A stretch of 64,000 bases of DNA, from the NCBI GenBank assembly GCA_008632985.1, contig QPGO01000066.1, positions 203,771 through 267,770 on the forward strand, read 5' to 3'. Positions 2,665-46,068 of this stretch are shown here, piece by piece. Made by a program: the position numbers and the translations under genes. Each line of letters starts with the position of its first letter. The first letter of the stretch is position 1. This stretch comes from Psammoneis japonica (lineage: Eukaryota). Under the pieces are notes generated by a model. The model was not told the DNA's origin, did no database searches, and was given only the letters and a program-made list of their open reading frames with translations.

Positions 2665-2796
2665 CAGCAAAAGTTGGCATGCATTGATGCCACTTCCACA
2701 AGAGCACACCACTTGCTTCTTGACAGCAATGTCAAAGCTCAACTCAGCCTTGTCAAAAACATCCAGAAGCTCTTGTGTTGGTTTCAGTTTCAACCA
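2665..2796 (-). pseudogene. Fragment of a sulfurtransferase (rhodanese/MST C-terminal domain)
   Basis: LKPTQELLDVFDKAELSFDIAVKKQVVCSCGSGINACQLL resembles the CGSGVTAC active-site loop and its preceding helix. The rest of the gene is not recognisable. Confidence 0.55.
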
Positions 2797-3397: not shown

Positions 3398-4330
3398 ACT
3401 GACATGGTCTGAATCAGGGCTTTCAAGCTCATCCATTGCCAAAACCACTCTGTGTGTGATTCTGGAAACAGCACAACAAGGGCGCTGGCATGGGCAAAAA
3501 AGGAACGTGCTGCATGATGAGGGTCGCAAGCCAATTCTGATTCAACCCACACGCGTTGTTGACAGCGCCACACACACTTCATGCACTCACCTCTTCCAGC
3601 ACAAACATTGTCAGCATTCTTGCTTTGATGTTGTGAGATGTTGTCATCCAGGCGGCTCAGCTCTGTCTCATGAAAGTGCCATTTGGGTGACGGCATGTTG
3701 CTTGGACAAGACATGAGGTCATTCTCAGACATTTCAAAGCTGCTCAATGAAGCTGCCGCCATGAGAGTCATGCTTCGGTGCTCCCTGCCTGATTCGATGA
3801 TGGCGGACATGATGGCATCAAAAGTGCAACTTTTCACGATGATCCTGAGGGAAGCATTTTTTGGTGCAAAACGACATGTGTGTTGGTCAGGTGCTGACTT
3901 TGCTCAATTTCTCCACCAAACCATTGCTCGAGATGGCCCCTCGGTGTGTTCCACCTGATTGTGTGATCGCGGACATTATGATGCTTTGAAGGGGCTGTCC
4001 AAAACAGTGATTCTGAGGGTGCGAAAGCGATTTGTGGCAAGAAACGGCAGGTTGATTTTTTGGTTGTCGCTCAGCGAAGGCTACGGAGTTGGAAGCTCGG
4101 ACTTGCGCGTTGTGACCGCACGTTGAGTCTTATGACATCCATGGTCCATTTGGGCAACGAGGTTGATTTCTTCTAAAAAAACATAAATAGCACCTGCGTG
4201 ATTTCTACTACGGCGTACCCACCCATAGCAGCGCGGATGTTGCTGCTGCCATCTGCCATCATCACCGCTGCTGGTTTGCTGTGTTGTCTCTATTGAGCCC
4301 ATAAGGTGTCATTCAGCCCACATTACAACC

Positions 4331-12500: not shown

Positions 12501-15500
12501 AGGGGGGGCTTCTTATTCTCGCCTGCTGAACGAGGGTTGTTGTGACTTTGGTTCTCTCACCAGATGTGAAGCCGCTTTAGGCGCCATGGCCGGTTACGCT
12601 TGCAGCAAGATATTAACAGAAATTGTTTGTCTTCCTTTTGGTCTTGGAAGAACAGTGTGCAAACAGATAGCAGGAAGATACATGGAGGGCGTGTGTGGGC
12701 TAGGTCTTACCGGTGACGCGGTGGGAAACTTCTTAAAGAGAGGATGCGAAACAGGTCTTGGCTGTTCAGCGGACCCTTGCTGCGGCTCGGAAGATCCTTG
12801 TTGTGGTTCAGACGACGAATGCTGCGGCTCCGATGACCCTTGTTGCGGCTCTGATGACCCTTGTTGCGGCTCGGAAGACGAATGCTGCGGCAATAACGAC
12901 CCTTGTTGTGGTTCAGACGACGAATGCTGCGGCTCTGATGACCCTTGTTGTGGTTCAGACGACGAATGCTGCGGCTCCGATGACCCTTGTTGCGGCAATG
13001 ACGACCCTTGTTGTGGTTCAGAAGACGGATGCTGCGGCTCGGCTTCTTGTGAAGATGATGACAAAGCGCGTTCAGATGGCGACCCGCACATCCTTACGTT
13101 TGACAATTTGGCTTATTCGTGCCAGGGAGAAGGCGAGTTTACCTTGGTGAAGTCGTTGGATTCTGGTCTTCTTGTGCAGACGCGCTTCAAGAAGTCAAAG
13201 TTCAATTCAAGGGTGAGCGTCACGCGCGGATTCGCTGCGCGGGTGAGCGAGAATTCTCCAATAGTACAACTAGCTATTCCCGAAATTGACGGCACTCCGA
13301 TCTTGTACATCGACTCTGTTCTCCACGACACGCTTGTTCCGTACGACGATGAGCATGTCTCCTACACGCCAGCAAGTGGTGGTTCCAGGTTCACCGTGCA
13401 ATTCAAGGAATGGAGGTTGACTGTTGTTGGTCGGATGTCTGGAGATTTCGTTCTGAACGTGGAAGTGTCCATCTCGAAAAACTTCCGCGCAGAACGCATC
13501 GTAGGTTTAATGGGTAGCAACGATGATGACTCAACTAATGACTGGATGACATCGGATGGAACCGTTTTCCGGTGCCAGAAGACCCAGAAGGAGAGGGCTT
13601 ATCTCAATATGAATACTGCGTCACGAACTGGTGTATCCTAAACGAAGACGAGTCTTTGTTCTTCTATGATCAAGATCTTGACTTTTCCTACTACTTTGGG
13701 TGCGATCAGCCATACGAAGGGGACGTAGATCTTTCTGGAGTGAGCGATGAGGTTAGGGATCTTTGTGGCATTGATCAAGAATGCTTGATTGATGGGGTGG
13801 TATTGGGTCTAGACATTGCCCAGAGTACTCTCGAGGGTAAGGCTTCTGCATCACTCCCTCCACATGGGTTCACGATGTCAACTACAATGTTACGTTTACG
13901 GTGAACATCAGTACAGTTCCTCCTATTGAAACAGGCTCCATTGACGCTTATTCGATTTATCACTTGGGTGATCGAACTGTATTTCTTGGAACAGCCAGCA
14001 AGACAACACAGGAGGGCAAGGTGTTTGTCATTACGACATCTCTACGATCGCAGATTGCCGGAGAAAGCTTATCGTTTCAAGCTGTACCGCAAATGAACGG
14101 GGTTGACGTTCCATCGTCACGGCACGTTTTCACTCGATTTAATGGGGCGATTTGCTTTTCTCGAGTATCAGGAATCGGATTGACGAATCTTTTTGCCGAC
14201 CTATCTAATCTTCCCATAGGCGTGAGCTTGTGGGTTTACGACATAGAGGAGGTTTTTCTAGTACAGCGGAATGCCGGAAACAGTACTCAGCTTCTCAGTG
14301 TCCCTGCTACAAAAATTTTTGTCAATGTCATTGATACAAGTGCTGATATTTGGAAACTGGTGGACTGCTTCGCTGGCACTTGTCAATTGATGGATTTCAC
14401 TGCAATGTTGGAGGTGGATGTGTCGAGGCTACCCAATTTGTACGAATTGGAGCTCCTGACAGAATCCGGTAGCAGGTTTCGCAGGGATCTAAATGCTGGC
14501 GGATCTATCGCGTCCTACAAAATTCTTGCCCTACCAAACGTGACCGTTGCCCTACCGAGGGCAGGGGTGCCGGTCCTGTGCGTCCATATTTTGTTCGGGA
14601 CCTCGACTGTTCTTCTGGGTCGTGTCGCGTCGACGACGTGACGAACGACTTGTACGTTAACTTGACTGGACTCGAGGATAATGACTTGGAGATTCGATTG
14701 TATGATTCCGAGCTTGGTGGTGGGCTTCGGTTCATTCGCGACGTTATGAATGAAACGGATTTTACAACCGCCGTCTTGCCATTTGTTTACGACGTTGAAG
14801 TTAGAGATAATTCGGATGGGTTGGCGATCCTCGGAATCAGTGGTGTTGACTGCTCCGGGAGCTCGTGCGCTATTGGCCCATTCAATGCGGTGTTGGAGGT
14901 GGATGTGTCTAAGTTACCGAATCTATACAAAGTGGAGCTCCTGAATGAAGCTGATGGGCGTAGCTTTCGAATCGATCTTGATGCTGGTGGAACAGTCGCG
15001 TCCTACAAAATTCTTACCCTACCAAATGTGACCGTTGCCCTAACCGAGGGCAAGGGGGCTGGGCCAGTGCGTCCGTATTCTGTACGAGACCTTGACTGTT
15101 CTTCTGGGTCGTGTCGCGTCGACGACGTGACGAACGACTTGTACGTTAACTTGACTGGACTCGAGGATAATGACTTGGAGATTCGATTGTATGATTCCGA
15201 GCTTGGTGGTGGGCTTCGGTTCATTCGCGACGTTATGAATGAAACGGATTTTACAACCGCCGTCTTGCCATTTGTTTACGACGTTGAAGTTAGAGATAAT
15301 TCGGATGGGTTGGCGATCCTTGGAACCAGTGGTGTTGACTGCTCCGGGAGCTCGTGCGCTATTGGCCCATTCAATGCGGTGTTGGAGGTGGATGTGTCTA
15401 AGTTACCGAATCTGTACAAAGTGGAGCTCCTGAATGAAGCTGATGGGCGTAGCTTTCGAATCGATCTTAATGCTGGTGGAACAATCGCGTCCTACAAAAT

Positions 15501-16335
15501 TCTTACCCTACCTAACGTGACTGTTGCCCTAACCGAGGGCAAGGGGGCTGGGCCAGTGCGTCCGTATTCTGTACGAGACCTTGACTGTTCTTCTGGGTCC
15601 TGTCGCGTCGACGACGTGACGAACGACCTGTACGTTAACTTGACTGGACTCGAAGATAATGACTTGGAGATTCGATTGTATGATTCCGAGCTTGGTGGTG
15701 GGCTTCGGTTCATTCGTGGCGTTATAAATGAAACGGATTTTACAACCGCCGTCTTGCCATTTGTTTACGACGTTGAAGTTAGAGATAATTCGGATGGGTT
15801 GGCGATCCTTGGAATCAGTGGTGTTGACTGCTCCGTGAGCTCGTGCGCCATTGAACCATTCAATGCGGTGTTGGAGGTGGACATGTTGGGTTTACCCGGT
15901 GTTGGAGCACACCTCATCTTAAAAACTGCTGCCGGGGACACCTTCTTGCGTGATGAGGATGCAGGTGGGGCTCTCAAAAGCTATAACATTTTGGCACTTC
16001 CAGACTTGACGGTTGAGTTGAAAGAACGAGGTGCGGGGCAAGTGAGCTCCCTTGTCATTGAGGACGTCGACTGTTCCTCTGGGGGGTGCAAGGTTGTCGT
16101 GACGAGCAGTTTGTCTATAAATCTTGCTGGTCTTGCCAACGACGTCAGTGTCGATTTGGTCGACCCAGAGAACGGCGGCATTTTCCGTCGAATCTCTGGT
16201 CAGGGGGGTTCGGAGCTTAGCCTCACGGTTCTTTGCGATCTTCGCTACACGGTAAAAATTTTCGATTCAAGCAGCGTCATCTCTGAAGAAACAACAGACA
16301 TGTGTCCGTGTGGAGGGACCTGCAATTTCTCTTAA
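9538..16335 (+). CDS. Giant secreted protein (~2,260 aa if joined): Cys-rich N-terminus, PSxxPS repeats, TSP3-like Ca-binding motif, CCGSDD repeats, von Willebrand factor D domain, 163-aa C-terminal repeats; three frame breaks (~13570, ~13850, ~14555)
   Basis: Signal peptide MLFRHFLVSLLLCRLCRG; DDDCDGVPDAFDLCP; GDPHILTFDNLAYSCQGEGEFTLVK...VGLMGSNDDDSTNDW. Four abutting ORFs continue the same domains. Confidence 0.8.
11870..12135 (+). repeat. Coding PSDQPSLE-type tetrapeptide-period repeat
   Basis: PSLEPSxEPSDxPS repeated in the translation. Confidence 0.9.
12772..13042 (+). repeat. Coding 21-bp minisatellite (about 13 x D[P/E]CCGSD)
   Basis: gacccttgttgtggttcagac-type units in frame. Confidence 0.95.
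14396..16085 (+). repeat. 489-bp coding tandem repeat, ~3.5 copies, near-identical
   Basis: ttcaatgcggtgttggaggtgga starts at 14881, 15370 and 15859 (489-bp period), with a diverged start at 14396. Confidence 0.95.
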
Positions 16336-16369: not shown

Positions 16370-18910
16370 GCAATTTCATGTTGAATCACATGTGAGCGGC
16401 CGCTCTTCATGGCGCACAATTCCTGGAATTTCCATGCTGTGTTGCGTGTGACTGTGTGCTCAATGATGCAATGCCGATGGCGGTGAACACCCCTCATGCT
16501 GGCCACACACCCCAGGCCATGGCACCACCCACTCACACTGTCAGAGGAGGAGCTCTGCCATTGCAGCAACAAGAACCCTCCTGCCAGCACGTGCTGCGAT
16601 TGGCACCAAGAGCAAGGGCCACAGCCTGCAGCTCCATTCCTGCCTGTGCAGCTACCACAGGAGCTGTGAATCCAAGAGTGCCCCTGCACCACTGCTCTGT
16701 CTCATCTCCCTCTCATCAGAGTTGTTCTGTGAAGATGACTGGGGCTTCTCAAAAAGAAGCAAGTGAAATGGCATGGTTCAGGACTTCCTTGAGGCACCCC
16801 ACACACAAGCAGGTGGCAGCAGCTGCTTTTCTTGACAATGAAAGCTCGGCTCTGCTGCTGGCGGCCATCATTGACGACAATGTGAATGGGCCACACGCCC
16901 TCAACGTGGGGTGGACAGCTTGTGCTTTTTGGCACTCTTTTTCCTGAGTTGGGGGCCGGCCTGCCAGCTTTTTTCCACTTGGCACCAAGCAGCACCTGGG
17001 CCCCAATCAGCATTGGGGTCATCAAGCAGTGGTTGCCAATGCCTCCAATGCCAAAGACGTGCTTGAGTGTGCAAGAAGTTGTGGCAGAGTCTCCATGCTC
17101 TCTCTCTCTCCTCTTTTCTTTGTCAGGCTGCTTCTGCCCAGCAGTGATTTTGCAGCAGCAGCTGTGCACACACAAAGGTGTGTGGAGATTGCAACAACTT
17201 TTTCAGAACACATCAGCTCCACATCCCATTCAGTCATGAGGCCTCATGTGCAGTGTGTGTTGTGTGAGCTGCAGGCTTTCAAGCAAGCAGGGTGTGGCAC
17301 AGAGAAAAGAAAACACAGGGAGGTTCTGGTCATGTTTCAAGGAGCATCCCCATGGGTTGATGACATTCAATGGCTGAATGAGATGCAAAAATTACTCTAA
17401 ATTGTTTCTGGCAACTTTGCAACAGTTGCGCGCACACAAGGGAGCTGGCACCATGGTGTGTTGTGAGTTGTGAGCATGAGCGTCAACGGGGACAGCATGC
17501 ATGATGGTTCGCACGTGATTTTTGGAATTTCAATGTGACCAATGTGGCTGGACAGGGGTCTGGTTTGAATGATGCAAATCTTTTGCACCAAGTCATCATC
17601 CTCATTGATGAGGACATCCATGCTTTTTCACGCAAGTTTTTCACATTTGTTGTGTCATTGACACACAAGTTGTTGTTGTTGTGAGGCTGCTGCCAATCAC
17701 TCTCTCTTGATCATGTTTTGTTGCAGCAGCATTCCTCGACATGCGGCCAGGCCTCTTTGCTTGAGCAGCAGTGCCACTTCTCATTTCAACAATGACAAAT
17801 GGTTTTTGCTCAAGAGCTTTTCTTCTTCAGAAGAACCCCGCGAAAGCATGCCGTGCGATGTCTTGATTGTCGGTTGTGGCCCCACCTGTCTTGCTGCATC
17901 GATTTGTCTCAAACAACTCTGTTTGCAACATGAACAAGATTTGAGTGTTTGTTTGATTAAAAAGGGATCCAAAATTGGCTCTCACATTTTATCTGGAAAT
18001 GTGCTTGATCCCAAGGCCTTGCCAGAATTGTTCCCAGAAGAAAAGGAAACGTGGGTTCAAGATGACTGCCAGTGATCAACCTGCTGCTCAGACTTCATGT
18101 GTCATTTGCAGAGCACAGCAAAGGGAATCAGCATCAATTCAAATGATGTGCAATGGCCCATTCACATGGCTCAATGGACTTGAATGCTGCGCGCATGTGT
18201 GCACACATGGGCTGTGCAAAAATGTGTGTTGAGCTTGACACGCCCAAGCTGCAAGCTGTTCTTTGTCACACAAATGTCCAATTTGAAGTTCAAAACTTGG
18301 CAATCTGACTGTTGTGAAGGGTCCAAGTCAGCACCTCTTGTGCCCACCCAGTGCAAAAAATTCTGAAGCAGATTGCTTGTTGCTGATGAGCATTTTGTTT
18401 GGCAGCTCTTGCAGAGCTGCAAAAATGAGCTCTGAAAAGGAGATTGTGATTTGTCTTGGTCAAAGCACTGCTGTGAGTGGCTGCAGGTGTTTTGGGGACA
18501 GCTCTTGTGATGGTGGAAGACCTCAGAGTTTGGCAAGAGTCCAGCTCAGCTGTGTTTTCCTTCTCGCATCATCTGAAGGCTGCCCAGATGCAGTGCACTT
18601 TTTGACCATTTCAAGAAAAAGAGTGGAGGCAGGTTTGCATTTGCCACCATGCAGGAGATGACTGCACTCATTGCCTGCTTGACAAGTGTCTGCAGTTTTG
18701 GCAACAGAGTGGCGTTTGGAGCCAAAGCAGGCTGTTGGCACTCTCTTTGCTCCGCTCGGCTGTGTGGCTGTGTGGCAGAAGAGAGAGGACTGCTCCTGAG
18801 GGCAAGAGTTGGGTACAGGTGAACATGGTGTGGTCAGCTGGGCATTGGAACAAAGATTCGGACATGTCGCAACAGCTGTTGTCTTGCTGTGTTGTGAGCG
18901 TGCTTGAACA
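16370..18910. other. TpA-depleted domain 3
   Basis: About six TA in 2.5 kb; begins ~35 bp after the VWD gene stop. Confidence 0.93.
17713..18063 (+). pseudogene. ETFDH: 5' partial duplicate of ETF-ubiquinone oxidoreductase (with upstream region from ~17510)
   Basis: Aligns to 19235-19579. GGGPAG is changed to GCGPTC and the copy is truncated after ETWVQD. Confidence 0.97.
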
Positions 18911-28462: not shown

Positions 28463-28599
28463 GGGAAAAGAGTGCAGTGTGTTGTGTCACACAACAGCTA
28501 GAATACTCAGGATTCGTCTTTAAAAAGGAATCCACACAAAATGGGAACTCAAAATAGAGTGTTTTAAAATAAAAAGATCTTGCATAATGAAGGACATTC

Positions 28600-31500
28600 G
28601 TTTCTGTTCTGCGTGTCTCTTGTTGCACTGTCATCTCCTTCAAAGCAATTCAGATGAACGTTTAAAAAACCTGTTCTTCACGGAAGAGCAGTGGGTGCAG
28701 AACACGCCACAGGGCAGAGCTCAAGAGCACACAAAGACATGCAGCCGCTTTCTGCACCAAAAAAAAGAAAGGCAGTGTTTTTTGTCACAGAGTTCAGCAA
28801 ATGTCACACATCAGGGGGGTGGGTGGGGGCACTGAGGTTTGCAATTCCACACCATGGCAGTGCAATCAATTGTCTGTAGCATTGGTCCATTGTGGCATGC
28901 TGGTTGTTGCAGCCACCGCACGTGCTGATCAGCATCATGCAACAGATGTTGAGCCCCCCAGGGGGGAATTTGTGTGGCAAGGAAATTTCAAATTGGCGGC
29001 GCGCATTTGCACTGGACTGTGGTGCTAAAAACACGAGCTTCATCCTCAGTGCTGGTGCAACAGATTTTGTTCCCATGCCTTTGCTTGCATGCTGCCCATT
29101 GACTGCTCCCTCTAATGCCTGTGAAGAGCTGCAACCAAGTCCACACCATGTTGTGCTGACAAAGATTTCTCCAATGCAGCCAATGAGCTCCTGTGCTGGT
29201 CAGATGTGCTCCTGTGATTGTCACAAGCAACTCACAACCACCATCTGTCAGCTTTCTCTCAGAGCACTGGAGTGTCAGGGGGCATTTTTGCAAAAGTGTC
29301 TCAAATCATTGAAAAAACAGAGCTGAGACTGGGTGCTCTTGGTGGGTGCAAATGAGCACTTGGTGCCCAGCAGTTGTCATGATGACAATGACAAACCTTG
29401 GCAGTGCTCCTTTGACAAGAGCGTCACAGCCAGAATGGAGTGGCAATGCAAGCTTTTTCAAACAACAGGCAGATCAAAAACAAGAGATGTCGAACACAAG
29501 CAAGGTTGCCCTCTCTTCTCTCCAAATGCAAATGCTCCAACCCAAAGCACCTGGCCCTGCTGTCAGCCATTTTTCTCTTCATGCCATTTGCAATGGTCTG
29601 GGAGCTGAATGCAAGCATCTTGTGGCAATTTTGAACAGCTGCCTCCAGCTGCTTTTTTGTTGCTGCAAGAGAACATGATGTGCTGGCTGGTGCAAGCTCT
29701 GCACAAATGCACACGGGCACACTTCTGAGAGCATGTCAATGCAAAATGTGAGCTCACAAAATGTTTTGACGGAACCAATGGCATTGAAGCGTTGTTGTTC
29801 GTGGAAGATCGTTTTCGTAAACTGGCTGCAAAACTTGAATTCACTGCAGGCGAAGAACCATTTGACAATTTCGAAGAAGTGTTGACAGATGCCACTGAAG
29901 ATAAATGGTCCAATCTCACCATGGCGATTCCGGATGCGCAGAAGACGGTGGCTCGTTTTGACCAAGAATTGGCTCGTTTTTGTTTGTCATGTTGTGAAAC
30001 TGAAGCGCGTGACATGATGATTGAATGCTTGCTCTCTCTTAAAAAGCCATGTGATGTTGAAGAACAGGCACATGCGGATCGAATGGAGACCTTGGTGCGA
30101 CACACGAACAAGTTGCCGGGAAATAATCCAGTTGTCACTCAGAGCCAGAAGAAGAAGATGATTTTTGACAGCTTCCCTTTGTCATGGCGTGAGATGTGCA
30201 CAAGAGCAGGACGCACGATTGGAAATGATGCGTTGGCGGAAATTGTCACGCACATGAGCACGGAGAAATCATTTGCAGACAGGAACAAGAAGACGTCGAA
30301 AAAGCACAAAGACGGACAGTCGAAAGGTGGCGGCTCGACCAAGAAGAAAGGCAATCGCATCAACACAGAATCTCAATGTCCTTTGCACACTCACAATCAC
30401 AAGTGGAAAGATTGCATCATGAATCCCGACTCCAACAACTGCCGTCCAAGAACTGATCGTGGAGGTCGCGGATGTGGCGGCCGTGGTGGTCGAGGTGGCG
30501 GTCGAGGTGGAGGTCATGGTCATGGCGGAGCGCAAGGTCGTGGCTGGCAAGGCCGTGGCTGTCAAGGTCGCAGTGGTGGCCAAGGAAACTGCAGTGGTCG
30601 CGGAAACTGCAACTCTGGCGGCAATGGCGGCGAGCATCATGATGATGGTGGCTCTTACATGCAATGTCAAAATGACACCCGAACCAATGCAGATGGCGGC
30701 GGTTACGGCAATCCGGCCAGAACGGCTCCTCCTGATGATTGGTCTGCTGAAAGCCATCATCTTGATTCAACAGGAGGGCCTCAAGAGTGTCGAGGTGGAG
30801 CGGGAAGTTTTCGACCTGGTGGTCGCTTCTCGGGACGCGGTCGACACTGACCCAATGAGCTTGAAGAGCTGTCGTCCGAGTGTGTCGCTCCTGATTCCCA
30901 CATGTTTGATGATTGCACTGATTGCATTGATGATTGTCTTGCACATGCTGCTGATTTATTTGATGATGACGATTTCGGAAATTGTGCTGTGAATGACGAA
31001 GACGATGTGGGACTTGAGTGCGCTGCACCAACCCCAAAAACAAAACCAATTGGACCTTTAAATGTGGTCCCTGCAACCTTGTTCGCAGCACGATTCATTC
31101 AAGACAAGGAAAGCAAGCACGTGATGCGGGTGTTGCTTGATTCCGGTGGAACCCATTCAATGATTCATGCTCGGGTGTTGCCGGTTGGAGCGGTTCCAGC
31201 ATTGGAAGAAACAGGACCGATTCGTGCGAAGTTTCGGACAATGGCAGGAGAACTCGAATCAACTCGTTATGTTTGACTGCAGGACTTGGTGCTCCCTGAA
31301 CTCGACAAGACCAAACATGTTGACGGCATGCATGCGCATGTGTTTGACTCACCCTGCCAATGTGACATGATCCTTGGACAGGACTTCTTGGCAAGAGCGG
31401 GTGTCACATTGGATTTCGAACACGGAATTGTCAAGTGGCTCGGTTCAAGCATCGCGATGAAGCCAAGGAATCAGCGGACTGGCATCCAGCAATGACTCGA

Positions 31501-34500
31501 CGATTTGACTGATGAGCTGGCTGATGATGATGAAGTGTGGGACAGCCACATCTTGATGCAAAGTGTGAGGAGACGTCCCCTTCTGAAGTGGCTTCGGCTC
31601 AGAAGCACCTTGCTGCCAAACAGCAAGAGAAATTGCGCCTCGTGTTGGAGAAACACACTGCTCTTTTCAATGGCACCCTCGGCAAGCATGCTGGCAAAAA
31701 AGTTCACCTTGATGTTAATCCCAACGCCGTTCCGCATCATTCTCGAGCGTGTGCAGTGCCGCACAATGATCTCGAGACCTTCAAGCGAGAATTGGATCAC
31801 TTGGTGGCTCTTGGCGTTCTTGAAGAAGCCGGAACTTCGGAATGGGCTGCAGGTGCTTTTATTCGGCCGAAGAAGGATGGTCGAGTGCGGTGGCTCAGCG
31901 ATTTTCGGGAACTTAACAAAGCCCTCAAGCGCAAGGTTTGTCCCTTGCCGATTGTTCAAGATGTGTTGCAGAAGAGAGCCGGGTGCAAATTTCTTGCAAA
32001 GTTGGATCTCTCAATGATGCACTGTACGTTTGAACTGGACGACGACTCCAAGGACCTGACGACAATTGTGACACCCTTTGGAAAATGTTGACACTGCCGT
32101 CCAGCAATGGGTTTGAAACCGGCTCCAGACATTGCGCAATGCTTGATCGAGAAAACTGTGCACGACTTGGACGTTGACGTGCATGTTGATGATCTAGCTC
32201 AATTTGATGACGATTTTGACATTCACCTTGCTCGTCTTGACAAACTCTTGCAATGCTTGGAAGAAGCTGGGTTTAAAGTGAATCCTTTAAAATGCGAATG
32301 GTGTGTGCAGGAAACGGATTTCCTTGGGCATTGGCTAACTCCGACTGGAATTCGTCTGTGGAAGAAGAAAGTGGAAGCCATTCTGCGAGTGCAACCTCCG
32401 GAAAATGTCAAGCAGCTTCGTTCGTTTCTTGGTGCTGTGACATGCTGTCGTAACATGTGGCCTCGGCATTCTCACCTGTTGAAACCCTTGACAGATCTCA
32501 CAGGCAAAGGCTCGTGGACGTGGACAGCAGAATGTCAGGCGGCGTTCGAAGAGATGAAAGCAGTCCCAGCGGCCGAGACGTTGATGGTGCATCCGAATCA
32601 CAACAAACCCTTCCACATCTGCACCGATGCCAGTGATCACCAGATGGGCACAGTGATTGCACAGGATGGAAAACCTGTTGCATGTTGGTCTCGAAAACCT
32701 TGGTTTGGTTTCACCGTGTTTTTGAACAAAATTCCCCGGGATTGCCACCTTTCACCCTGTTTTTCTACGGAAAGGGTGAATTCCCGGGGAATCGACACGA
32801 GTTGCCCTTCGTCATGTACAAACTGAATGCATGAATAAAAAATTGTGCATTGGCAATTCCCGGTGCTTCCCCTCTCGTACATTTCTGCGTGTTCTACGTG
32901 CCGGCACGCACGGAACCACACATCAGAATTGAAAATCAACAATCGCAACAAAAATGGGCAACACGCAATGGAGCGGCTCGCATCCCATTTATGACAGCTT
33001 TTGTCAAACAATGATGACACCAGTCAATCTAGTGAACAACATTGCGATTGACAGCATAAAATGTAAAATGAATGGATTCTTGACAGATTGTGTTTGGAAA
33101 AAAATGGTGTGTTGACAGATCGTTGCACTTGCTCTTTTGTCGTGCGGTCACAAATGCAAGCCATGCAGCGTCTGCAGCAAAGTCCAAAGCAAAAGCAGAA
33201 CTGTCTGTGGCAAACAAAAATGTGGCAGATTGAATGGTCTTGCTCATTTTTCCAGTCGACACATCTCATGTTCAGAATGAAGCAGATTGTTTAGAATCAC
33301 TGTTGTCGTGCAGCTACAAATGCAAACCATGAGGCGTCTAAAGCGAAGGCTCAGGCAAAAGCAGAACCTCACAAGGCTAATAAAAACTATGGCAGATTGA
33401 GTGTTCATGCTTGTTCTTTCCTTTGAACTGTCTTGTTTGCAGAATGCAGTGTACCGTGCATTCCTTCTTGTGTCGCGTGGTCACAAATGCAAACCACAAG
33501 GGCTCTAGAGCCAAGGACAAGGCAAAAATAGAACCTCACACAAGCAACGTTAATGTGGCTGATCCAATGGCAAAGTTTCTTCTTTCCTTGCTCCACCACA
33601 AGGGGCCGCTTTGTGTCGATGTGTCGATGCAATCATTGTCGTCGTCGCTCGGTCATGGTGATAAAAGCACACCCGCCTAACTGCAATTACCGTACATTGC
33701 CGCACTCCATTCGTTTTTGTTCCCCTCCCCTGAGCCCTTTCAGGCGTTCCTTCCCGCAAAATTACCCTCATTTCCCGGGATTCCCCCAAAAGGGCAAGGC
33801 AACTTCCCCTTGCCCTGGCCATTTTGGGGAATCCCCAAATGGGTAAAACCAAACTAAGTCGAAAACTGAGTGCGGTGCAACAAAACTGCTCGACGATCGA
33901 AAAAGAACTCTTGGCTGTTGTCATGTGCTTCCGCGAATTCTGGACGATGCTCCTTGGCGGCAACTTGCATGTGTTCACTGACCACAAGAACCTTGCCTTT
34001 CGCACCTTGAATTCACAACGTGTGCTCCGTTGGCGCCTCTTTCTGGAAGACTTTGCCCCTCAATTCCATTGCATCGAAGGCCGACCAAATGTCTTGGCTG
34101 ATTGTTTTTCTTGTTTGCCTCATGTGGATCCTCCCTCTGAAGGGAAGAGCTTGGCTCCGGGTGAAGGAACTGTTGTTGATTTTGCTCCGCTCGATTCGAA
34201 GTTGGTGCCGAGTGAGGAACCATCCGAAGTCGAGGATTTCCGCGATGAGGACTTGGAGCTCGGCGCATGCCGATTCAAGTGTTGTCGCAACATTGAAAAT
34301 GAAGGCCACTCACACTTCTTCTCTTTCTTTGTTGATGAGCCGGAACTGTTTGATTCCTTTTTGAATCACCCTGCGATGCAGGAGATGCAAAATCCAATGA
34401 CGTCACAATGGATTCAGGAGCACCAGTTCAAGGACCAGCAATTGAACCAGATGCGCATTGCTCACCCTGATCATTTCCTTGTGGAACATGTGAACAATCA

Positions 34501-35590
34501 ACCGCTTGTGTGTCATCGCATGCAACCAAATGATCCTCCAGGACAGTGGAAAATCTGTTTGCCGACTGCGCTTGTGCCCGACATCTTGCGGTGGTGTCAT
34601 CTCGTCCTTGGCCATGCCGGAAGCCAGCGCATGCGTGAAACAATCCAGACTCATTGTTGTCATCCTGGGTTGCGTTGCATGTGTGATGAATGCTCTTGTG
34701 CTGATTGCCAACGGACAAAACTTTGGGTCCTGGCCATGGAGAGTTGCCCAAACGAGAAGCTCCATTGACTCCCTGGTCGGAAGTGGTGGTTGACCTCATT
34801 GGCCCGTGGAAAATCAAAGCACCGAATGGAGAGATTGAGTTTCGGGCGTTGACCTGCATTGATCCTGTCTCCAATCTTGTTGAACTGTTGAGAATTGAGA
34901 ACAAAACTGCTCGACATGTTGCTGACCAATTCGAAAACTGCTGGCTTGCATGCTGTCCCAGACCGAGTCGATGCATCCACGATGACGGCAGCGAGTTCAC
35001 CGGGTGTGAGTTTCAGATGCCATTGCAACAAGCCAGAATTGATGATGTGCCGACTGCTTCATACAACCCTCAAGCCAACACTGTTTGTGAACGAATGCAC
35101 CAGACTGTCGGCAATGTGTTGCGCACGCTCATTGCTTCTAATCCACCTCAAAACCTTCAGGGTGCAGCTGGCCTCGTGGACGATGCTTTGGCAACTGCAA
35201 TGCATGCAACTCGCTGTGCTGTTTCCCGTTCTTTACAGACATCACCAGGTGCCATGGTGTTCGGACGTGACATGATCTTAGATGTCCCGGCACTGGCGGA
35301 TTTGTTGATGATTCAAGGCCATCACCAGATGCTGATCAACGACAACTTGCGACGAGCCAATGCCAAGAGAAGATCCTGCGATTGTCAAGTGGGTGATCAA
35401 GTTCTAATCAAGTCGGTTGTGGCACGCTCTCGGTTCGTCGAGCTCCTCATGTGGTTGAGCGCCTCAACATTCGGCGCCTGATTCCTTTTCGCGGTTGATC
35501 AGGGGGTTTTCTTCCCAACACCTGGGTTTCCTCCTGCTGTTGTCTTTACTTTTGGTTTTGGTCCTTGGTTTTTGGCCCTTTGCATGATCC
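28600..35590. other. TpA-depleted domain 5
   Basis: TA nearly absent except inside the 32699-33858 insertion. Confidence 0.93.
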
Positions 35591-35621
35591 TCTAGTTCTT
35601 TCGGATCATGGAAGGGAAGAG
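29760..35621 (+). mobile_element. Inactivated Ty3/Gypsy LTR retrotransposon (gag, protease, RT, RNase H, integrase), apparently 5'-truncated
   Basis: Gag ~29760-30850; protease LLDSGG; RT KKDGRVR..DFRELN and HVDD; RNase H TDAS..EKELL..TDHKNL; integrase Zn finger with DLIGP/HDDGSEF/CERMH. Domain order is PR-RT-RH-IN, with internal stops and frameshifts. Confidence 0.96.
32699..33858. mobile_element. 1,160-bp non-autonomous DNA transposon (hAT-like: 8-bp TSD, 17-bp TIR) nested in the Gypsy RNase H
   Basis: TSD tcgaaaac at 32691-32698 and 33859-33866. TIRs cttggtttggtttcacc / ggtaaaaccaaactaag. Removal restores VACWSRKLSAVQQNC. Three internal ~170-bp repeats at ~33140-33550. Confidence 0.93.
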
Positions 35622-35810
35622 TGCAGCAACTCACTCGCACGCTTCTGATATATAGTATTAATTTTGAATATTAGATTAACGTAGCCGTTTGAGAGAGGCT
35701 CGCCAGCGTTCGCTAACGCTTAGGCTCCCCTCTCTTCGGTCTACTCACTTCTTTGTTTTGACATCAATCTCAGCTTGAGCTTGCAAATTGGCTCAAAATG
35801 TCTGTGACAT
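35610..35810 (+). repeat. Putative polypurine tract and 3' LTR of the Gypsy element
   Basis: ggaagggaagag followed directly by TG at 35622. The right end is uncertain and no second LTR was found. Confidence 0.45.
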
Positions 35811-37320: not shown

Positions 37321-38799
37321 AGGTTGATTTGGCTTCTGAGTACTATTATATGCACGTCAATGACCCAGACCTCCTTCCTGGACAGTCCGAAGAGTCGCCG
37401 CTAGAGTATAGCTTTCAGGCTTGAGGCTTGTTGCTGCGTTAACTCGAGAACCTCAAATTTTGCGATTCTTGCGTGTGATCAAATGTAGTTCATTAATCCG
37501 ATCCACATTGTCAAAATGAGAGTACACGAGCTCGTAAAATGTGGATTATAGTTTTCATGATGCTGCTGTGCTGTTGTGGTTCATGCATCGTGCTGACTCA
37601 TCTGTTGTTGATTTTAATTTTCGTTTTCTGTGAGAGAGAGGCTTGTGTCTGTATCTCATTGGCTGATGCAAGCAATTTGTGATGACTTGACAAAAGTCAT
37701 GGATGTGTGCTTGTGTCATCAAAGCTGCCCCTGCATTGTCAACGTGCCAAAAAAAAAAACCGACTCTTTGCACAAGGATGCCTTTCTCAAGCCAAAACTG
37801 CAAAAAAATGAAGGGCTGGTTTGAAAGCATTTTTTGCATTTCTGTGAATTGTTGCAGATGACCTGAACATGTGTCACTTCAACCTGTGACAAGCAGCAGA
37901 CATTTAACCTGCCACACCCAAGACACCAGCTTGTTGCTTGAACAATGTGTTGTCTGGCCATCATTGCTTGAGCAAGAACGACAGCATCTTGTTTTTGCAC
38001 ATTTGAGGTCACACAAACAAATCTGTCATGGTGAAAGCAGCTTGAGCTGGATGCCAGTGGCAAATGCCTCAATGTGGGCCTTGCAGTGGCATTGTTTTGC
38101 CTCTTCCTGCCCCATCATCATCATCATGCTGTCATCGCAGCCATCACAGAGAACAATCTTTGGAGCTCAGTCAGACAATGCTGTCAAGACAGGCAAGCAG
38201 CTTTGCCTTTCCAGGAGCAGCAGCCATTAGAGAAAAGGGACAGAAATGACAAAACAGACAAAAAAGATGGAACCTGGTGTGACTGGCAACCACGCAAAAT
38301 GTGCAACACTGCTCACTCTCTGACAGCTGCACCAGATGATCCATGAACTGCCAACAAGACCATTGTCAAGTTGATCAAAGATGACATCCAATGTGAAAAC
38401 ATGCTGCAGACCTGGAGAGTCACCTTGGTGAGAGAATTGCAGTGCATTGCAGCACATGACTGAATGGGCTGGAGAGCATTGCAGCACTGGTTCTGTGGTG
38501 ATGAGTGTCCAATGGAAGTTCAAGTCCATTGCTGGTGTTGATTTTGTCCAGACCATTTTCTCAAAAAATGATTGTTGAAAGTCACAAAGAGAGTTGGTCA
38601 TGGCAAACCACAAAATGACAAGCCAAAAGCAAGCCACCAAGCTTCCTCAAGCAAAATGACATCAATGCTGAATCACCAGCCTGCTGTCCAGCATCACCTC
38701 CCCTGAAAAAAACCTCATTTTGCAAATGCCCACATGATTTTCTCTTCTTGCATTCATGTGCATCACTCTCATTGTTGTTGTTGTTGTTGTTTTTAATTC

Positions 38800-39430
38800 C
38801 CTTGTCATGATGTCCAGTGGCATTTCTCTGGCCAATGATTTCGCTGCAAACAATGATGTCACTGTCATTGACATTGACGTGGAGCATTCTCCTCTTGATG
38901 ATGACCGTGATGATGGTGACAGCAAACCCAATGACAGCCCCAATGATGCCAGTGCCAACGACAGTTTGTGCAATGTCAACAATGATGATGCCTCTCATGA
39001 GAAAGATGAGAAGATGCCGGACCACCCAGAATGGCTCATCAATGAGAAAGACACCACTTCTGATGGGTTGGCGCATGATGTCACCACTGGCTCTCCTTCC
39101 CACCCACCTGCATCTTCTGCTTGTGATGCTCACAAAAGCCCACCTGCATCCCATTCAGATGTGCTGTGCTCAGTTTCTGTGCCATCGTTCATGGAAGGCT
39201 GTGGCACTCACTCTGCAGAGGGCCCACTCAAGGAGCAAAGCAAAGAACTTCTTGCAAAAGACTGGCTCACTGTTGATCTTTGCAACAAGACAGACAGCTT
39301 GGCTTCAACCAAGGAAGAGTTTCTAGATGGATCTAAAAACCAATGGTGCTTGGATGCACTCAAGCAAAAGTGCCACAAGATGTTCCCACTTTGCAAGCTG
39401 CGCCAGGCTGCAGTCCATCAACTGGCTGAT
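38800..39430 (+). mobile_element. Possible remnant of a Mutator-like transposase N-terminus
   Basis: Acidic leader then WLTVDL...LKQKCHKMFPL..LRQAA, reminiscent of diatom MULE-type ORFs from memory only. No catalytic core seen. Confidence 0.25.
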
Positions 39431-42400
39431 TTTTTGCAGAGAATGACTTGGATCAACTGTGCGTGGTGGCTGCAAGGGTGTTGAGCACAATGCTGGACTG
39501 TGCACAAAAGGGTTTGTCCATTGATGCAACCTTCAAAACCATGTTGTTGATGACCAGTGTGTGGACTTGCCATGACAACCCCATCTTGGCACAAAGCAAG
39601 ATCAAGAACAGAGCAGCAAAGCAGAGCTGGCTCATGTCTTTCCAAGAATGTTGCTGCACTGCAGCCATGGTCATTTGAGCCATTGGTGCTCAAAAGCATT
39701 CTGCAAATGTTGTTGATTGTCTTGCCTTGAGTGAGGATGACATCATCTGTCCACCAAGAAAACAAAGTTTTCAGAAATGCTCAGCGGGCAAAACAATGGG
39801 TCATTCACAAGACAACTGCTGCCCAAGTCTGCATGCTTTCAAGAGACCACCCCTCAAGGTGAGAGGCATGAAGCAAAGGTCAGTCCCCTCTGCACTCAAC
39901 TGCAAAATGCCCATGTGTTTCACACAATGCACCGTGATGCTGACGACAATCCTGCAGTCCACAAAACACACCCCAATGGTGGACAATTGCAACAACAGTT
40001 GCTCTGCAAACTCCTTGTGGACAATTGTGCAGATCCAATTGGCAGTTCCTTGATTGCTTGCAAGCAAGGCTCAGTGCTGCCCATTTTTCCACATGGCAAC
40101 AGCATGCCAGCCTTGTGTGACTCTTTCTTTTGGAACAACAGCTGGTTCAGAAAGGAGTTGTCCATCCACTTTTCCTCTTTCCAAGCACCCTTCCCATTTT
40201 GCTCACAAAAACATCTCATTCCATCAAAATGTGACAAGCATTTTGTGACAAAGCTGAAATTTCTTCACAGATGCATTCGCAAAAGTGAGGCACCTGCCCA
40301 GGTCCAGTTTCTTTTTCAAAAATTTGTTGAGCTCTTTGATGCAAGTGTGGCCAGTCACTCATCCACTTGGGAAGGAAACTGATGCCAATCTTGTTGCAAA
40401 TGGTGTGTTTCTCAACCAAGTCTTTGCAATTCTGTGTGTCCCTTGTGACAAAGTTGTGGATGGTCTTGTGGCATGATGAGCATGCCATCACGTTGTTGAG
40501 AGACTCTCCAAACATGTGCCACAAAAAAAAACACAAAGAATCACAAGGAAGCAACTTTGTGCTGCCACATCCACTGAGGCATGACAACTGGAATCTTTGA
40601 CACATTTTGTCTGAGCTGACAAAATCTTTGCAAGTTCCCACCCAGGTGCAGTTTGTTTGAATTCCTTGAAAAGCTCAAAACAACCATCTGGCACAACAAG
40701 CACCCCAAATGCATCCCATGACAACTTTGAGGCTTGGCATGGAGCAAAAGCAACATGCAAGTGGTGATTCCTCCAAGAAACACAGGGCTCTGTGAAAAGA
40801 AATGGAAGGCACAGAGCATGGAAACCATTTCCAGCATGCTCAAATTGAAACTCAGAGCTGGACAAATGATGCAATCCATTGCCATCATTGCAAATGATGG
40901 TGGATCAAGACTGCACTTGTTGTGCACAATGTCAAACCCTGGAAGATGCTGGCATTGTTCTCCTTCTTGCAGGTGATCATCAATGAAGTGACATGACTCC
41001 TCAAAGCCATTGTCAATCTTCCATGATTTCTTCCAGCAAAACATCATGGTTTTTGCGATTGTCACACACGTTGTCAGTTGATGGACACATTTGTCCATTG
41101 AGGCCAAGCCAAGCACCACATGCAACCTTCAATGTTCCAATGACAGATTTGATGATGGCCTTGTCATCCTCATGGCAACCACAGTTGTTCTTGATGTCAC
41201 CAACAGACAACCGCATGGACTCCAACACATTGTCCTTGCAATCAGTTTGGGCGTGCCAATGTTTTTTGCACTTGGGGTTGTGCTGCATCTGTTGCAGAAA
41301 GAAAAGGGTGGAAAGTTGCAGATGGATCCATCACTCCATTCATCCAGAGCAGACACAATCCTTGCATCACAAAAGTTGGAGAAGGTGATTTGGCAGCATG
41401 GCATCCTTCCCATCCTTGTGAGGCAACACTGATTGGCACTTTGTCAAATGAAGCAAACTGGGCTCATGTGTCATTCCCAATGGGAAATGAACAGTCTGCC
41501 TCTCCAAATGAGGAGAGATTTCCTGCTGGATTTGGAGATGCCACAATGGCTGGAATTGGGCTTTTCAAGTGCAAAGCCAAGGTTGAAAATGGATTCCTCA
41601 AGCAAGTGACAGCAAGAACCTTGCTTTGTGATTGACAGGAACACATTGCAGCTGGCCAGTGAAGAGAAAACTTTCATTGGAAAAAGAGAAGGGTCAGTGC
41701 ATGCAGCCCTCAAACCAGGACCATTGCCATCAACAAGCTGCATGTTTTCCAAGCCATCTGATTCAGGGACATTGACAATGAAGAGTGCATCTTGTTGTCC
41801 ATCAACTGGGACATTTGCAAAGTTGTTGGTGCCTGTGCTCAATCCAACAGAGGAACAGCCACAGTCAGAATCAACATCATCATCAGTTTTTGACATGCCG
41901 CCACCACCATCAGCCCAGATGATGACACCTCCAACACCACTGTCTGCATCAATGGTGTCACCACCTTTCTACATGCCACAACTGCCACCAAAGCAGGCCA
42001 CAACATCAACCCTGGCAAAACCTCCAACACAATTGGCACAACATTTGGAAGCAGCAACACAAGTTGAGGCTGGAACACAGCAAGCATCACCCACCACAGG
42101 AACACTGCCCAAGACCGACCACCCCACCATGAGGGTTGCTAAAGACAGGTGTGGTTGAACCAAGAGAGCACCCATGAAGCTGCCAGAACATGAGCGGAAG
42201 CCACAATGCTGTGCATTGCATGTCATGGCCAGCTGTTGGGACCAGGGCATTGTGACATGGCTGCCATGCAATGGTGCAGCACCTTGATGCACAGCATTCT
42301 GACCCCCCCCCCCCCCGGCTCAAAAGAACCATTGCCTGAACATGTCTTTCTACAATGCTGCTTGGCAGGCTTTCTCCCTGCAAAGAAATCTCAGCACAAA

Positions 42401-43346
42401 ATGTGCTGACGCACAATCAGCATTGAGTCTGCTGAGGAAGTTTGTGATGCACATTCCACCATGAGGACTTAACACCCAACAAAAAACTGTTCAAGTGTGC
42501 GCACTCTAGACGCCTGTAAAAGCCAATCTGCTTGAGCATTTTATGTGAAAATGCTGCATGCGCCAAAAGATGCACAATTTACATTCAAAGTTGATTGTCA
42601 TTTTGTGTGTCACCTGGGACTGGAGCACGTCTGAAGCAGCTTTCCATGATGCACCCGGAAGGGAGAGAGGCATTTCACAGGTTTACACTGGAAAACACCT
42701 GGATTTGTGCAGGACAAATGTTTTGCAGCTGCCATTTTTGGATGAGTTGTTCGTGCCGAGTGTTGTGTCAGATGTGCACAAAGCAATTTTACATGTCACA
42801 CAATGATGTTGATGCAAACAAAATCCTGGTCTCACAAATGTGAGTCAGGGGGCAGAATGACCCAATGTGAGACAGACAAATGCACGGGGCTTCACGGGGC
42901 ATCTCTTGGCCGATTGCTGTTTGACAAGATGGTTCATCAAAAGTCTGGCTCCAAGACTCCTCCTGCTGATGGATCCTGTGAAGGCAAGAAAAGATCCAAA
43001 GTGGTGTGTTCACCTCTCCAATTTGTTGTGACAACAGCGATGATGAGTGCGTGCAAATCCAACAGAACAGCCATTGTTGGGCTGGTGTGCAATGACTCTT
43101 GCTGCCTGTGGTCTGGCTGTTTAGATGACAAACAACAAACACATGGCAGTGTTCAGCTTTGGACAAAGAATCAACTTTGTTTGCTTGCACAGTGCTTGCA
43201 TTTTGCTGGAATGATGTGGCACAGCTGCGGAGGATTGTCATTTGGTCCAACCAAATTCATGTGGCCGTTTGAGTCAAAATCATGAGGTTTGTGTGGGAAA
43301 AAAGGGGCTGAAGCACATTTTTGGTAAGATCCCCGGTCGGCGTTAA

Positions 43347-43760
43347 TGCCATGCCAACATCAAACCAAGCAACATGATGCTGGAAGGGGCCAGGGGAAAA
43401 ACAGTGGTGACGATTGACTTCGGATCCAGTGTTTCATGCGGTGAGAGCATCACTGGGCTCTCTTTTGATTTCGGACTGGACTGTTCTCCCAAAGGCTTGC
43501 TTGAGTGTGACCTGACTTGTCTGGCAGTTTCCATTTTGCACATGACGACTTCGACAAACAATCCGCTGAGGGAAGAAGTGACATGAGCCGGGCTCGCGCG
43601 TGCTGTCGGAGACCCATCAAACATTGCTTTGAGGGTCGCAAAAGCTTGTTTGATGGAGGGCAAGAGCATCAATGAAATTTGGGAAGAGGCCAAGGGGTTC
43701 ACAGAAAGCCGGTTTGGAAATGCGGAATGGCTTGTCGACTTTGAGCACATGTTGCCACAG
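43347..43760 (+). pseudogene. Protein kinase C-lobe fragment
   Basis: CHANIKPSNMML (HxDIKPxN with gccGac->gccAac) followed by TIDFGSS; in-frame TGA at 43584. Confidence 0.75.
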
Positions 43761-46068
43761 GCGACCTCCCCCCCAAGGCCACAATGGGTTTAATCATGTC
43801 TTTCATTTGGCTCCCAAGTTTAACCATGTGTGGCTGAGCTGCTTTCTAAGACAGGACCAATGCCCCAATTCCCCAACCAATTTACAAACCAAAAATGCCA
43901 GGAATCAAATTGAGTGTTGATTCTCTTTGTGGGAGCTTGTGGTTGTGCGGAGTGAGCTGCGTGCACTTGCGCATGGCAAAGCACCATGCATTGGTTTTCC
44001 ACAGAATTTCCATTGACAAGGCAGTCTGTCAGGCAAGACAAACCAAGAGAGAGAGACGTCACATGCATCTAGACTCACAAGAAGCTTGAGCTGTTTTGAC
44101 TGATTCTCCCCCTGTCACAATCGACTGAAACAATTTCACACAGTTCTGTGCAAAATCATGACCAGGTCCTCATTTGTCTCTTGAACCCAGTGGTCTCCGT
44201 TCACATTGTTGCCCAAGACTTGTTTGTAAGTTCCACCTCCTTTTTTCTCCCACCAAAGTGATGGTGCCCAGTGCTTTGACACTTTAAATGTGCCCATCTC
44301 ACATCCATGTCCCGGATCTTCTTGGTCCTGTGTGACTTTTTCGGTGCTGCAAGTGGAGTTGTTATGACAGCTGCTGGTGAACACCCACATGTGTTGACTC
44401 TCTGTCCTTCTGTTTGGTTCTTTGATGCACATGGAGAAATTCATTTTTTCTGCAACACAAGGAATTTCTTGGTCATGGAATGTTCAACAATGCTCTGTGT
44501 GGCACACAGACTTGACCAACAAACTCAAGTTTCACATCACAAGTGCCAGAAAAGTGCATGTTGATTTGACAAATTTGCACTTGGGGGGATTTTTGGGTCT
44601 TGTGACTTTCTAAAATTGAAGCTGCAGCTGCCAGCAGAGACCACCTGAGCAGCAGTTTTGACAAGAATGCCAAAGATTTCAAGCAGGAGGCAGATCTGCA
44701 GGCAAGACAATGCAGGGGTTTGGGGCTGACCAAAGCTTTCAAAACACCCAAAGTGGCAAACAAAGGCATCTTTCTACCTTGGCATCTGCAAGCAACAAAA
44801 GAGTTGCTGGAAGTGTTCCATGTTCCCCTGTGGACAGCAATGACACAGAGTCGTGCACAAAGATCACATGCGTGCAACCAGTGCAGTGGCAAAGGCACAA
44901 CTGGCAAACCTCCAGAGAAAAGGTTTTGTTGATGTTGTGCTGTTTTGTGACACATGTGCTGTGTCGTGCTCACTCTGCTGTGGCTTGTGTGAGAAGTTCA
45001 GCGCGTTGCTCCAGCCATCTCAACATTTGACCAAACAGCAAACTTCTTGGCATCATTGCTGGAAACATGGAAAAGCAACTGTTGTCTCACACTTCTTCTT
45101 TTTGGATTCTAGAAAGCCTTTTGTCTGTTTCTCAATGACTGGTGCAACCAATTTTTTGTGCTGCTGCCCAGCACTGGGTCACAATGTGCAGATCAGATGA
45201 CTTTTTGCACAACAACGTGTCTTTTTCAACACAAAACCACACAAATTTGAAGGGCCAAAGGGCTGGTTTGAAATCATGCTGCACTTGTGAAGTTTTTTGA
45301 AACTCACAAGTGGCGTGATTTTTTCAGCCCTTTTTCAATGTTGCTGTTTGAAGTCAAAGATGCCTGGAGAATCAGGCTGCTGTTGTTTTTTGCATCTCAT
45401 CATTCATTCCCTCCCTCGCTGCCATGTTGTCTCACACTGTCATTTCACTGGAAAGACACCCATCAAGGACTTGTCCTGTCATTGCAAAAGAAAGCACCAC
45501 ACGTCTTCTGGAGCTCAGCCACACGCAGCATCATGCAAAAACCAATGAAGCAACGTCAGCATCGCCAGAGAAAAGCACAAAAAAAGAGCTGCACGCTGAA
45601 CATGTGGCTGACAACCATGTGAAATGTGCAACACGGCAATGCACACTCTCTGACAATTGCACTGGATCATTCATCAACTGCCAAGATCATCAGCAAGTTG
45701 ATCAAAGAAGAGGCTCATTGTGAAGGTGTGCTGACCGAAAGCTGCAGAACCACCTGTTCTGTAGAATTGATTAAGTGATAGAGTTGGAGTGTTGGTTCCT
45801 CGGTGATGTATGTCCAACGGAAGTACAAGCCCGTTACTGGCGTTGATTTTATTCATTACTGAAGTTACGTATTTCGATCTATATGTTTATGTAAAGAAAC
45901 GCAGGATAATGATAGAGCTTGCACATCTCGCGGGCTTTTTTGATTATTGTTTTCCTTTTCAAAAAAAAAAAAAAGCAGGGACATATTGCTTTGGAATGAC
46001 ATGACACCTCATACTGTACCTCATATCTCACTCATCGCCCCCTGCTGTTGCGCCCCAGAGTTACCACC

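Follow-up and report, generated by a model that had tools for sequence, protein, structure and literature searches.

The window analysed here is a 64-kb stretch of the genome of the diatom Psammoneis japonica (contig QPGO01000066.1), and its features are listed in Table 1. It contains a Ty3/Gypsy LTR retrotransposon copy, hereafter called the window copy, which lacks the 5′ LTR and the leader and has an internal deletion of approximately 60 bp near position 35415. For a neighbouring gene, the best homologues that carry a name are diatom proteins. Pfam matches occurred in the order reverse transcriptase, RNase H, and integrase, as in Ty3/Gypsy elements. The frame with the protease region carries a stop. 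The RNase H region is interrupted by a nested TIR element of 1.16 kb, which is bordered by an 8-bp target-site duplication at positions 32691 and 33859. The nested element is younger than its host Gypsy element and was less converted (observed-to-expected ratios [o/e] of 0.31 for TA and 0.73 for CG).

Table 1. Features of the 64-kb window
Position	Strand	Feature	Basis or remarks
1..3900		Depleted domain, late-stage pattern	TA o/e 0.023, CG o/e 0.24
14396..15858	+	Unconverted host tandem repeats of 489 bp with identities of up to 97%	Control
17641..18063	+	Partial copy of the host ETF-QO gene, whose source lies at 19175-19579	Inside a depleted domain
28520..29761		Flank depleted in both dinucleotides, read as older debris	Counts: TpA 0.11, CpG 0.21
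29729..30850	+	gag-like ORF, stop to stop, with G-rich Gly/Arg tract	ORF list; no Pfam hit, 'gag' from its position
29762..35785	+	5′-truncated Ty3/Gypsy LTR retrotransposon copy (window copy)	blastn against 20 genomic copies, Pfam, dinucleotide counts
32092..32698	+	C-terminal part of reverse transcriptase and start of RNase H	RVT_1 E=5.6e-7, RT_RNaseH_2 E=4.8e-14
32699..33858		Nested non-autonomous TIR DNA element	Target-site duplication and TIR positions, 50 genomic matches, counts
33859..35481	+	Rest of RNase H, integrase zinc finger, integrase core	RT_RNaseH E=3e-14, Integrase_H2C2 E=2.4e-5, rve E=2.9e-4
35621..35785	+	3′ LTR, 165 bp, adjoining a host gene, spared	12 TA, o/e 1.0
37800..45400		Old repeat debris	TA o/e 0.054, CG o/e 0.18
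62535..62924		Copy from a 390-bp repeat family that is very young and has TIR-like ends	Early stage, with TA conversion under way and CpG nearly intact

A search of the genome assembly (91.4 Mb, 597 contigs) with the reverse transcriptase region gave 43 matches among the best 40 of 110 candidates scored, and 22 of them were near full length at 85-100% identity. Throughout, the copies compared were best-scoring matches (the best 40 of 110, 40 of 185, and 40 of 1529 candidates scored). Of the 21 further copies of full length, 20 entered the comparison of Gypsy copies and L022 was left out; L038, a duplicate of L036, was also omitted from most counts. The family is approximately 5.45 kb long and has 165-bp LTRs with TG...CA ends, which were present as pairs in 17 of the 20 fetched copies, the window copy having the 3′ LTR only; 5-bp target-site duplications were visible in several copies. 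In its domain order, LTR ends, and target duplications the family resembles other Ty3/Gypsy LTR retrotransposons, of which it is an ordinary member, and only its mutational state is unusual. The copies fell into two subfamilies with transversions of only 0.1-0.9% within each, against transitions of 7-11% relative to L043, the least-converted copy.

According to the original prediction, the region from 29760 to 35480 is nearly devoid of TpA and still rich in CpG. The counts agreed with this: the region has 49 TA (o/e 0.13), 26 of which lie inside the nested insertion, and 289 CG (o/e 0.82). In the 4697 nt of Gypsy internal DNA without the nested insertion, 25 TA were found (o/e 0.086), where the host o/e of 0.567 would predict 164 (P=9e-42), and the minimum in 1000 mononucleotide shuffles was 250. 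The same DNA has 247 CG (o/e 0.835), compared with 303 expected at the host rate (P=5e-4); CpG in the window copy is mildly reduced, not untouched. The example of CG richness given at approximately 30478 lies exactly there, in the G-rich Gly/Arg-coding tract of the gag-like ORF, and overstates the CG richness. The host reference, 35.8 kb of non-depleted window DNA, has a TA o/e of 0.57 and a CG o/e of 1.02, whereas the depleted domains 1-3900, 16600-19000, 23000-25400, and 37800-45400 have values of 0.02-0.06 and 0.17-0.27, respectively. Domains 1 and 6 of the prediction, which were said to have lost both dinucleotides, were read as the first and last of these as the obvious candidates, and both are depleted as described. 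The genomic relatives of the debris at 37800-45400 are 5-11% apart in transversions, as at a late stage. Conversion was confined to mobile DNA (TA o/e of 0.02-0.1 in element domains versus 0.57 in the host), except that the ETF-QO fragment inside a depleted domain was hit too, with 8 of its 10 TA converted and 9 of its 23 CG changed to TG or CA.

The fate of individual sites was followed across the Gypsy copies, among which the TA o/e spans 0.03-0.48 and the CG o/e only 0.74-0.95. Where L043 has TA, the remaining 20 copies have TG in 1407, CA in 1170, and TA in 356 of 3058 site-copies, and almost never CG, while the CG sites of L043 were retained in 3673 of 4882 site-copies. The baseline for these rates consists of real copies, and the starting TA content is therefore a lower bound. 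The per-strand hazards were 0.52 for TAA, 1.47 for TAC, 0.94 for TAG, and 1.47 for TAT, giving the preference TAY > TAG > TAA. A:T>G:C change was restricted to TpA: against TA hazards of 0.5-1.5 per strand, non-TA A>G amounted to 0.6-1.0%, which resembles non-CpG C>T (0.65%), and transversions to 0.15%. As a relative estimate from the copies, each TA base received approximately 1.25 hits, compared with 0.12-0.19% transversions. A broader A>G mutator was considered on the basis of a three-copy spectrum with 2-2.5% non-TA A>G and was rejected after a recount of rare variants gave only the 0.6-1.0% stated above. A sequencing run over L043 showed five differences, all A>G/T>C, and was set aside; the contigs were fragmented, reads of other copies were mixed in, and the run probably represents the source sample.

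Where two copies were both converted at a site, the products agreed in 68-69% of cases within subfamilies, in 60% between subfamilies, and in 100% in the duplicated pair. Because the agreement within subfamilies was so far from that of the duplicated pair, the conversions appear to be mostly independent, with some inherited. Same-strand runs among adjacent conversions were absent in 19 of 19 copies, and TA retention was independent of the distance to the nearest CpG (0.11-0.14). The comparison of copies shows conversion of TpA to TpG or CpA on both strands, largely independently and after insertion. Every Tyr codon contains TA, and the window copy has 2 Tyr codons in 1320 codons versus 38 in 1396 for L043.

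Editing of RNA or cDNA at retrotransposition, a codon bias inherent to the element, or an artefact of the assembly is hardly credible as the source of the TpA deficit. This group of readings would agree with the slight excess of sense-strand TG over CA products (1407 versus 1170) and with the founder-inherited share of conversions. However, both products were found in every copy without strand runs, and DNA elements and the gene fragment were converted as well; with retroelements, DNA elements, and a gene fragment all hit on both strands and without clustering, the evidence points to integrated DNA as the substrate. Also against these readings are one copy with a TA o/e of 0.48, the closest outside relatives with 0.45-0.49, depletion boundaries that coincide with element edges, and the normal composition of the neighbouring genes.

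With other real copies as the reference, 15 of 188 TA-type sites were retained in the window copy, while 219 of 273 CG sites were kept and 54 were lost (Fisher p=2e-58). The resulting TpA/CpG hazard ratio was 11.5 in the window copy, with a median of approximately 12 over 20 copies; the ratio was 9.4-25.3 in 19 of the 20 and only 2.5 in L043. In the 390-bp MITE family, 136 of 895 TA versus 14 of 865 CG site-copies were converted at 30 loci (among the best 40 of 1529 candidates), a sample biased towards the window's own copy. When lineage-shared sites were omitted, the counts from the same candidates were 68 of 775 versus 4 of 805, and the TpA/CpG ratio in this family was 10-19x. Equal rates of TpA and CpG loss were excluded by the copy comparison, and the claim that TpA conversion outpaces CpG decay was borne out. 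As estimated from aligned copies, TpA conversion is approximately 10-12 times faster per site than the decay of CpG to TpG or CpA.

A further proposal was that TpA loss does not arise as a by-product when CpG decays, and DNA from outside this genome bears on this point. On a 500-nt grid of the own genome (1052 de-duplicated segments of 1338, enriched for repeats), 172 of 501 segments with TA<0.1 still have CG>=0.7, and none of the 157 CpG-poor segments (CG<0.3) has TA>=0.2; without the Gypsy loci, the latter count was 0 of 142. In related elements from 80 metagenome loci, on the other hand, the TA o/e was never below 0.45, and all 187 CpG-poor segments among 368 have TA>=0.2, although many of these contigs share accession prefixes and may represent few organisms. 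CpG decay cannot remove TA chemically, and because CpG-poor relatives elsewhere keep TA, the loss of TpA was not brought about by CpG decay. Within the elements compared, the TpA process appears as a lineage-restricted one.

The use of the TpA/CpG pair for ranking insertion ages held for coarse stages (very young, middle, and old) and failed for fine ranking, since TpA saturates early and its loss varies with the flanking DNA. At a ratio of 12, TA is computed to be 50% gone at a CpG loss of 5.6% and 90% gone at 17.5%. When the losses were set against transversions, CpG loss tracked private transversions (rho 0.59, p=0.006), whereas TA retention did not (rho -0.27, p=0.25), and one copy with zero private transversions had already lost 88% of its TA. 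The exceptional copy L043 kept 119 of 207 TA-type sites (57%) despite a CpG loss of 37/217 (17%), which equals that of the window copy (35/209). TpA thus ranks L043 as younger than the window copy at the same CpG loss and is poorly suited to fine ranking. The alternative that L043 is simply a young copy and inherited its CpG losses was ruled out by the spread of these losses over codon positions (8/14/8), as in dead copies. In addition, TA loss was overdispersed among young 390-bp copies (mean 4.3, variance 14), in part owing to shared lineage and a spread of ages. TpA, as judged from these copies, marks that a copy has been hit and is not a linear clock, while CpG, together with transversions, is the usable clock. 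The nested TIR family (30 of its 50 matches) was tried as an age series and dropped: significant trends with transversion distance were absent for both TA and CG o/e (p 0.11-0.82), and subfamily structure and incomplete sampling confound the series. LTR-pair dating was also dropped as an age measure, gene-adjacent LTRs being spared and some of the 21 transversions being alignment-edge artefacts. Overall, the copy comparison supports a fast, separate TpA process, with age ranking limited to coarse stages.

The description of the two losses as separate clocks is accurate as to their distinct rates and goes too far as to independence. TpA and CpG losses show some dependence: they fall within common domains and are correlated across LTRs (rho 0.62) and relative to L043 (rho 0.73), while the within-subfamily measure gave no TA-CG correlation (rho -0.28, p=0.23). 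These shared domains and correlations favour error-prone repair synthesis by a Y-family polymerase at T:G mismatches arising from 5mC deamination, which would place TpA conversion downstream of CpG methylation, and the CpGs are dense enough for long repair patches to span all TA sites. We nevertheless consider such repair improbable. TA goes before CpG in young copies, CpG is lost elsewhere with TA kept, and L043 combines the loss of 17% of its CpG with much retained TA. Repair patches also fit poorly with the absence of strand-coordinated runs and with the lack of an effect of CpG distance. The spectrum of Pol eta is WA, whereas AA>G was just 0.97% here against TA hazards of 0.5-1.5 per strand.

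RIP of ascomycetes converts C:G to T:A at CpA, so that TpA is made from CpA; it is triggered by homology, hits both copies, and operates in the premeiotic sexual stage. The diatom pattern resembles RIP as a dinucleotide-specific transition hypermutation that inactivates repeats, is limited to repeated or mobile DNA, and affects both strands, but its polarity is opposite, for TpA is lost and C>T in CpA is only 0.37% in the copies. A homology-triggered process of this opposite polarity acting on any duplicated DNA is very unlikely. The 97%-identical host tandem repeats retain 19 of 22 TA, 43 TA are still present in each of the glycosyltransferase paralogues, and the ETF-QO source gene keeps its own TA while its fragment was hit. 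These unhit repeats are coding, and selection could mask some hits. LTRs, the most repeated part of the element, were often the least hit, and those adjacent to genes were often spared. The sparing of gene-adjacent LTRs and of near-identical host repeats suggests regional targeting, which may proceed via silent chromatin rather than sequence homology. Consistent with a regional effect, the TA of LTRs followed that of their flanks (rho 0.61, n=37); in the 390-bp family, no such relation between retained TA and the TA of the flanks was seen (rho -0.13).

We regard it as highly probable that a post-insertion, TpA-specific transition process acts on mobile DNA in this diatom, and within this reading we infer both the chromatin targeting and the enzyme. 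Both strands of the integrated DNA would be attacked site by site, mostly independently in each copy. The stages would then lie on a single time axis along which the two losses run at different rates: very young repeats still have both dinucleotides, the middle-aged Gypsy copy has lost its TA and retains approximately 80% of its CG, and old debris has lost both. The slow decay of CpG would be ordinary deamination of 5mC on TEs. The effect would be to wreck coding capacity and to strip Tyr codons, and a role in defence is plausible from this pattern.

As to the chemistry, the A of TpA may be deaminated to hypoxanthine by a TadA/ADAT2-3-type enzyme and read as G at the next replication. The tRNA target of TadA/ADAT2-3 has U before the edited A, and the strict 5′ T of the conversion fits enzymes of this type. 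Adenine deamination of this kind has about an even chance of being the actual chemistry, and an adenine deaminase guided by silent chromatin would be the most likely mechanism, which we hold at similarly balanced confidence. The genome has ADAT2-like, TadA-like, and DNMT genes, including several C5 methyltransferases; the deaminase search gave nine matches among 11 candidates, all of housekeeping types without expansion. Genes of the ADAT2-like and TadA-like types encode tRNA enzymes that occur almost universally, and those found here are candidates for an activity on DNA. Modification of the thymine instead, in which T in TpA is oxidised to a 5hmU- or 5fU-type base that mispairs with G and yields T>C, would have the same kinetics and targeting. 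A T>C change leaves the same trace as A>G on the opposite strand, so that sequence alone cannot separate the two chemistries, and some other protists are known to oxidise thymine in repeats. This alternative is nonetheless unlikely: the single thymine-dioxygenase-like gene found carries a fused guanine-deaminase-like domain and is similar to enzymes of free-base salvage. A TET/JBP search of the genome gave no match, but its positive control was silent as well, and this negative carries little weight. The fullest version of adenine deamination is a dedicated DNA adenine-editing defence that is guided by silent chromatin, is independent of 5mC deamination, and strips TpA and Tyr codons within a small fraction of the CpG-decay time. 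Such an A:T>G:C counterpart of RIP, common to a rhizarian alga and absent in the hosts of related Gypsy elements, is a tentative proposal, with chances slightly short of even.

The rhizarian alga is the chlorarachniophyte Bigelowiella natans, in which integrated DNA of NCLDVs and virophages undergoes hypermutation by A:T>G:C changes at TpA only, as described in a preprint (Mettrop et al., bioRxiv 10.64898/2026.01.13.699255). According to its main text, the process was measured directly in mutation-accumulation lines at approximately 1000-fold above background and was active in only some lines; an ADAT2-type deaminase was proposed and is unproven, and TE-type domains were enriched among TpA-depleted CDS (bioRxiv 10.64898/2026.01.13.699255). 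The two systems share conversion of TpA to TpG or CpA on both strands, foreign or mobile DNA as the target, and uneven activity, among lines in B. natans and among copies in the diatom. They differ in their targets as described: in the diatom, a gene fragment was converted besides LTR and TIR elements, and the TA o/e was driven down to 0.02-0.1, compared with 0.45 in B. natans. They also differ in that the rate was estimated from copies in the diatom and in real time in B. natans. What the diatom data add is the rate relative to that of CpG decay, the preference for TAY, and the sparing of LTRs next to genes; the words 'CpG' and 'diatom' do not occur in the main text of the preprint (bioRxiv 10.64898/2026.01.13.699255). 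With respect to the slow clock, TEs of P. tricornutum, LTR elements included, are reported to carry DNMT5a-dependent CG methylation with H3K9me/H3K27me3 (Hoguin et al., PMC9998398). By analogy, 5mC deamination at diatom TEs would account for the CpG clock and such methylation offers a plausible targeting mark, but it cannot remove TpA. 'TpA' and 'deamination' are absent from the main text of PMC9998398, and 'TpA' is absent from the available text of PMC12344493. A literature search by word matching, with most subscription journals outside its range, yielded no report of TpA being lost from diatom repeats.

In the literature found, a natural A:T-to-G:C process on mobile DNA thus has one precedent, the 2026 preprint on B. 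natans, which, as far as its main text goes, comes without an established enzyme. Near-saturated conversion on ordinary diatom transposons adds a second supergroup branch, diatoms and chlorarachniophytes lying on different ones, and brings the process into a group with CRISPR-tractable relatives, where the enzyme and the targeting mark are testable. A rate approximately 10 times that of CpG decay, together with the separation of the two losses, removes the simplest explanation, a methylation by-product. Furthermore, standard dating by LTRs or divergence is badly inflated in this diatom genome, in which copies are approximately 10% apart with transversions of only 0.1-0.9%. Long stop-free frames also tend to persist in dead copies, probably through the erasure of TAA and TAG, and such frames can mislead annotation.

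The Gypsy copy L043 retained 57% of its TA, although its CpG loss was the same as that of the copy in the window, and its flanks were mostly gene-like in composition. L043 is a Gypsy copy that escaped TpA conversion. In the family of the TIR element nested in the window copy, the observed/expected ratios (o/e) of TA and CG were 0.86 and 1.04 in copy L073 and 0.45 and 0.64 in copy L067, respectively, whereas the TA o/e of their relatives was near 0–0.3. L073 sits within depleted flanks and so probably inserted very recently. Many related Gypsy loci among the metagenome loci L138–L217 had lost CpG strongly (o/e 0.03–0.3), yet their TpA was normal. The Psammoneis japonica genome shows the mirror-image pattern.

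The C5 DNA-methyltransferase ORFs at L105, L106 and L107 were TpA-depleted (TA o/e 0.03–0.13, CG 0.6–0.8) and some of these ORFs contained stops, in contrast to five host-type DNMT genes with a TpA o/e of 0.39–0.56. These methyltransferases are probably borne on mobile elements.

Locations of the features
Feature	Location
Gypsy copy L043	G000 (P. japonica genome) C160:13567-23566
C5 DNA-methyltransferase ORFs	L105, L106, L107 (G000 C301 and C297)
Guanine-deaminase-like domain and 2OG-Fe(II) dioxygenase, single predicted frame	L095:313-1785 (−), G000 C79
Five related ORFs	window 25678-26988, 35779-37320, 46000-47307, 55767-57053, 57624-58913
Long ORF with VWD domain and PT repeats	window 9442-13641
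489-bp tandem repeats, after that ORF	window 14396-16335
Region with inverted arms (141 nt each, 99% complementary)	window 62395-62924

The dioxygenase part of the L095 frame was similar to fungal thymine dioxygenase, and the predicted fusion appears to have a role in nucleobase salvage. The five related ORFs, whose TA and CG levels were normal, are a gene family local to the region; both members scanned weakly matched glycosyltransferase family 2_4. The predicted products of the VWD/PT ORF and 489-bp repeat region are likely surface or adhesion proteins. A high-copy family with 1529 candidates includes the right-hand 390 bp of the inverted-arm region; the left arm resembles an inverted partial copy adjoining this repeat.
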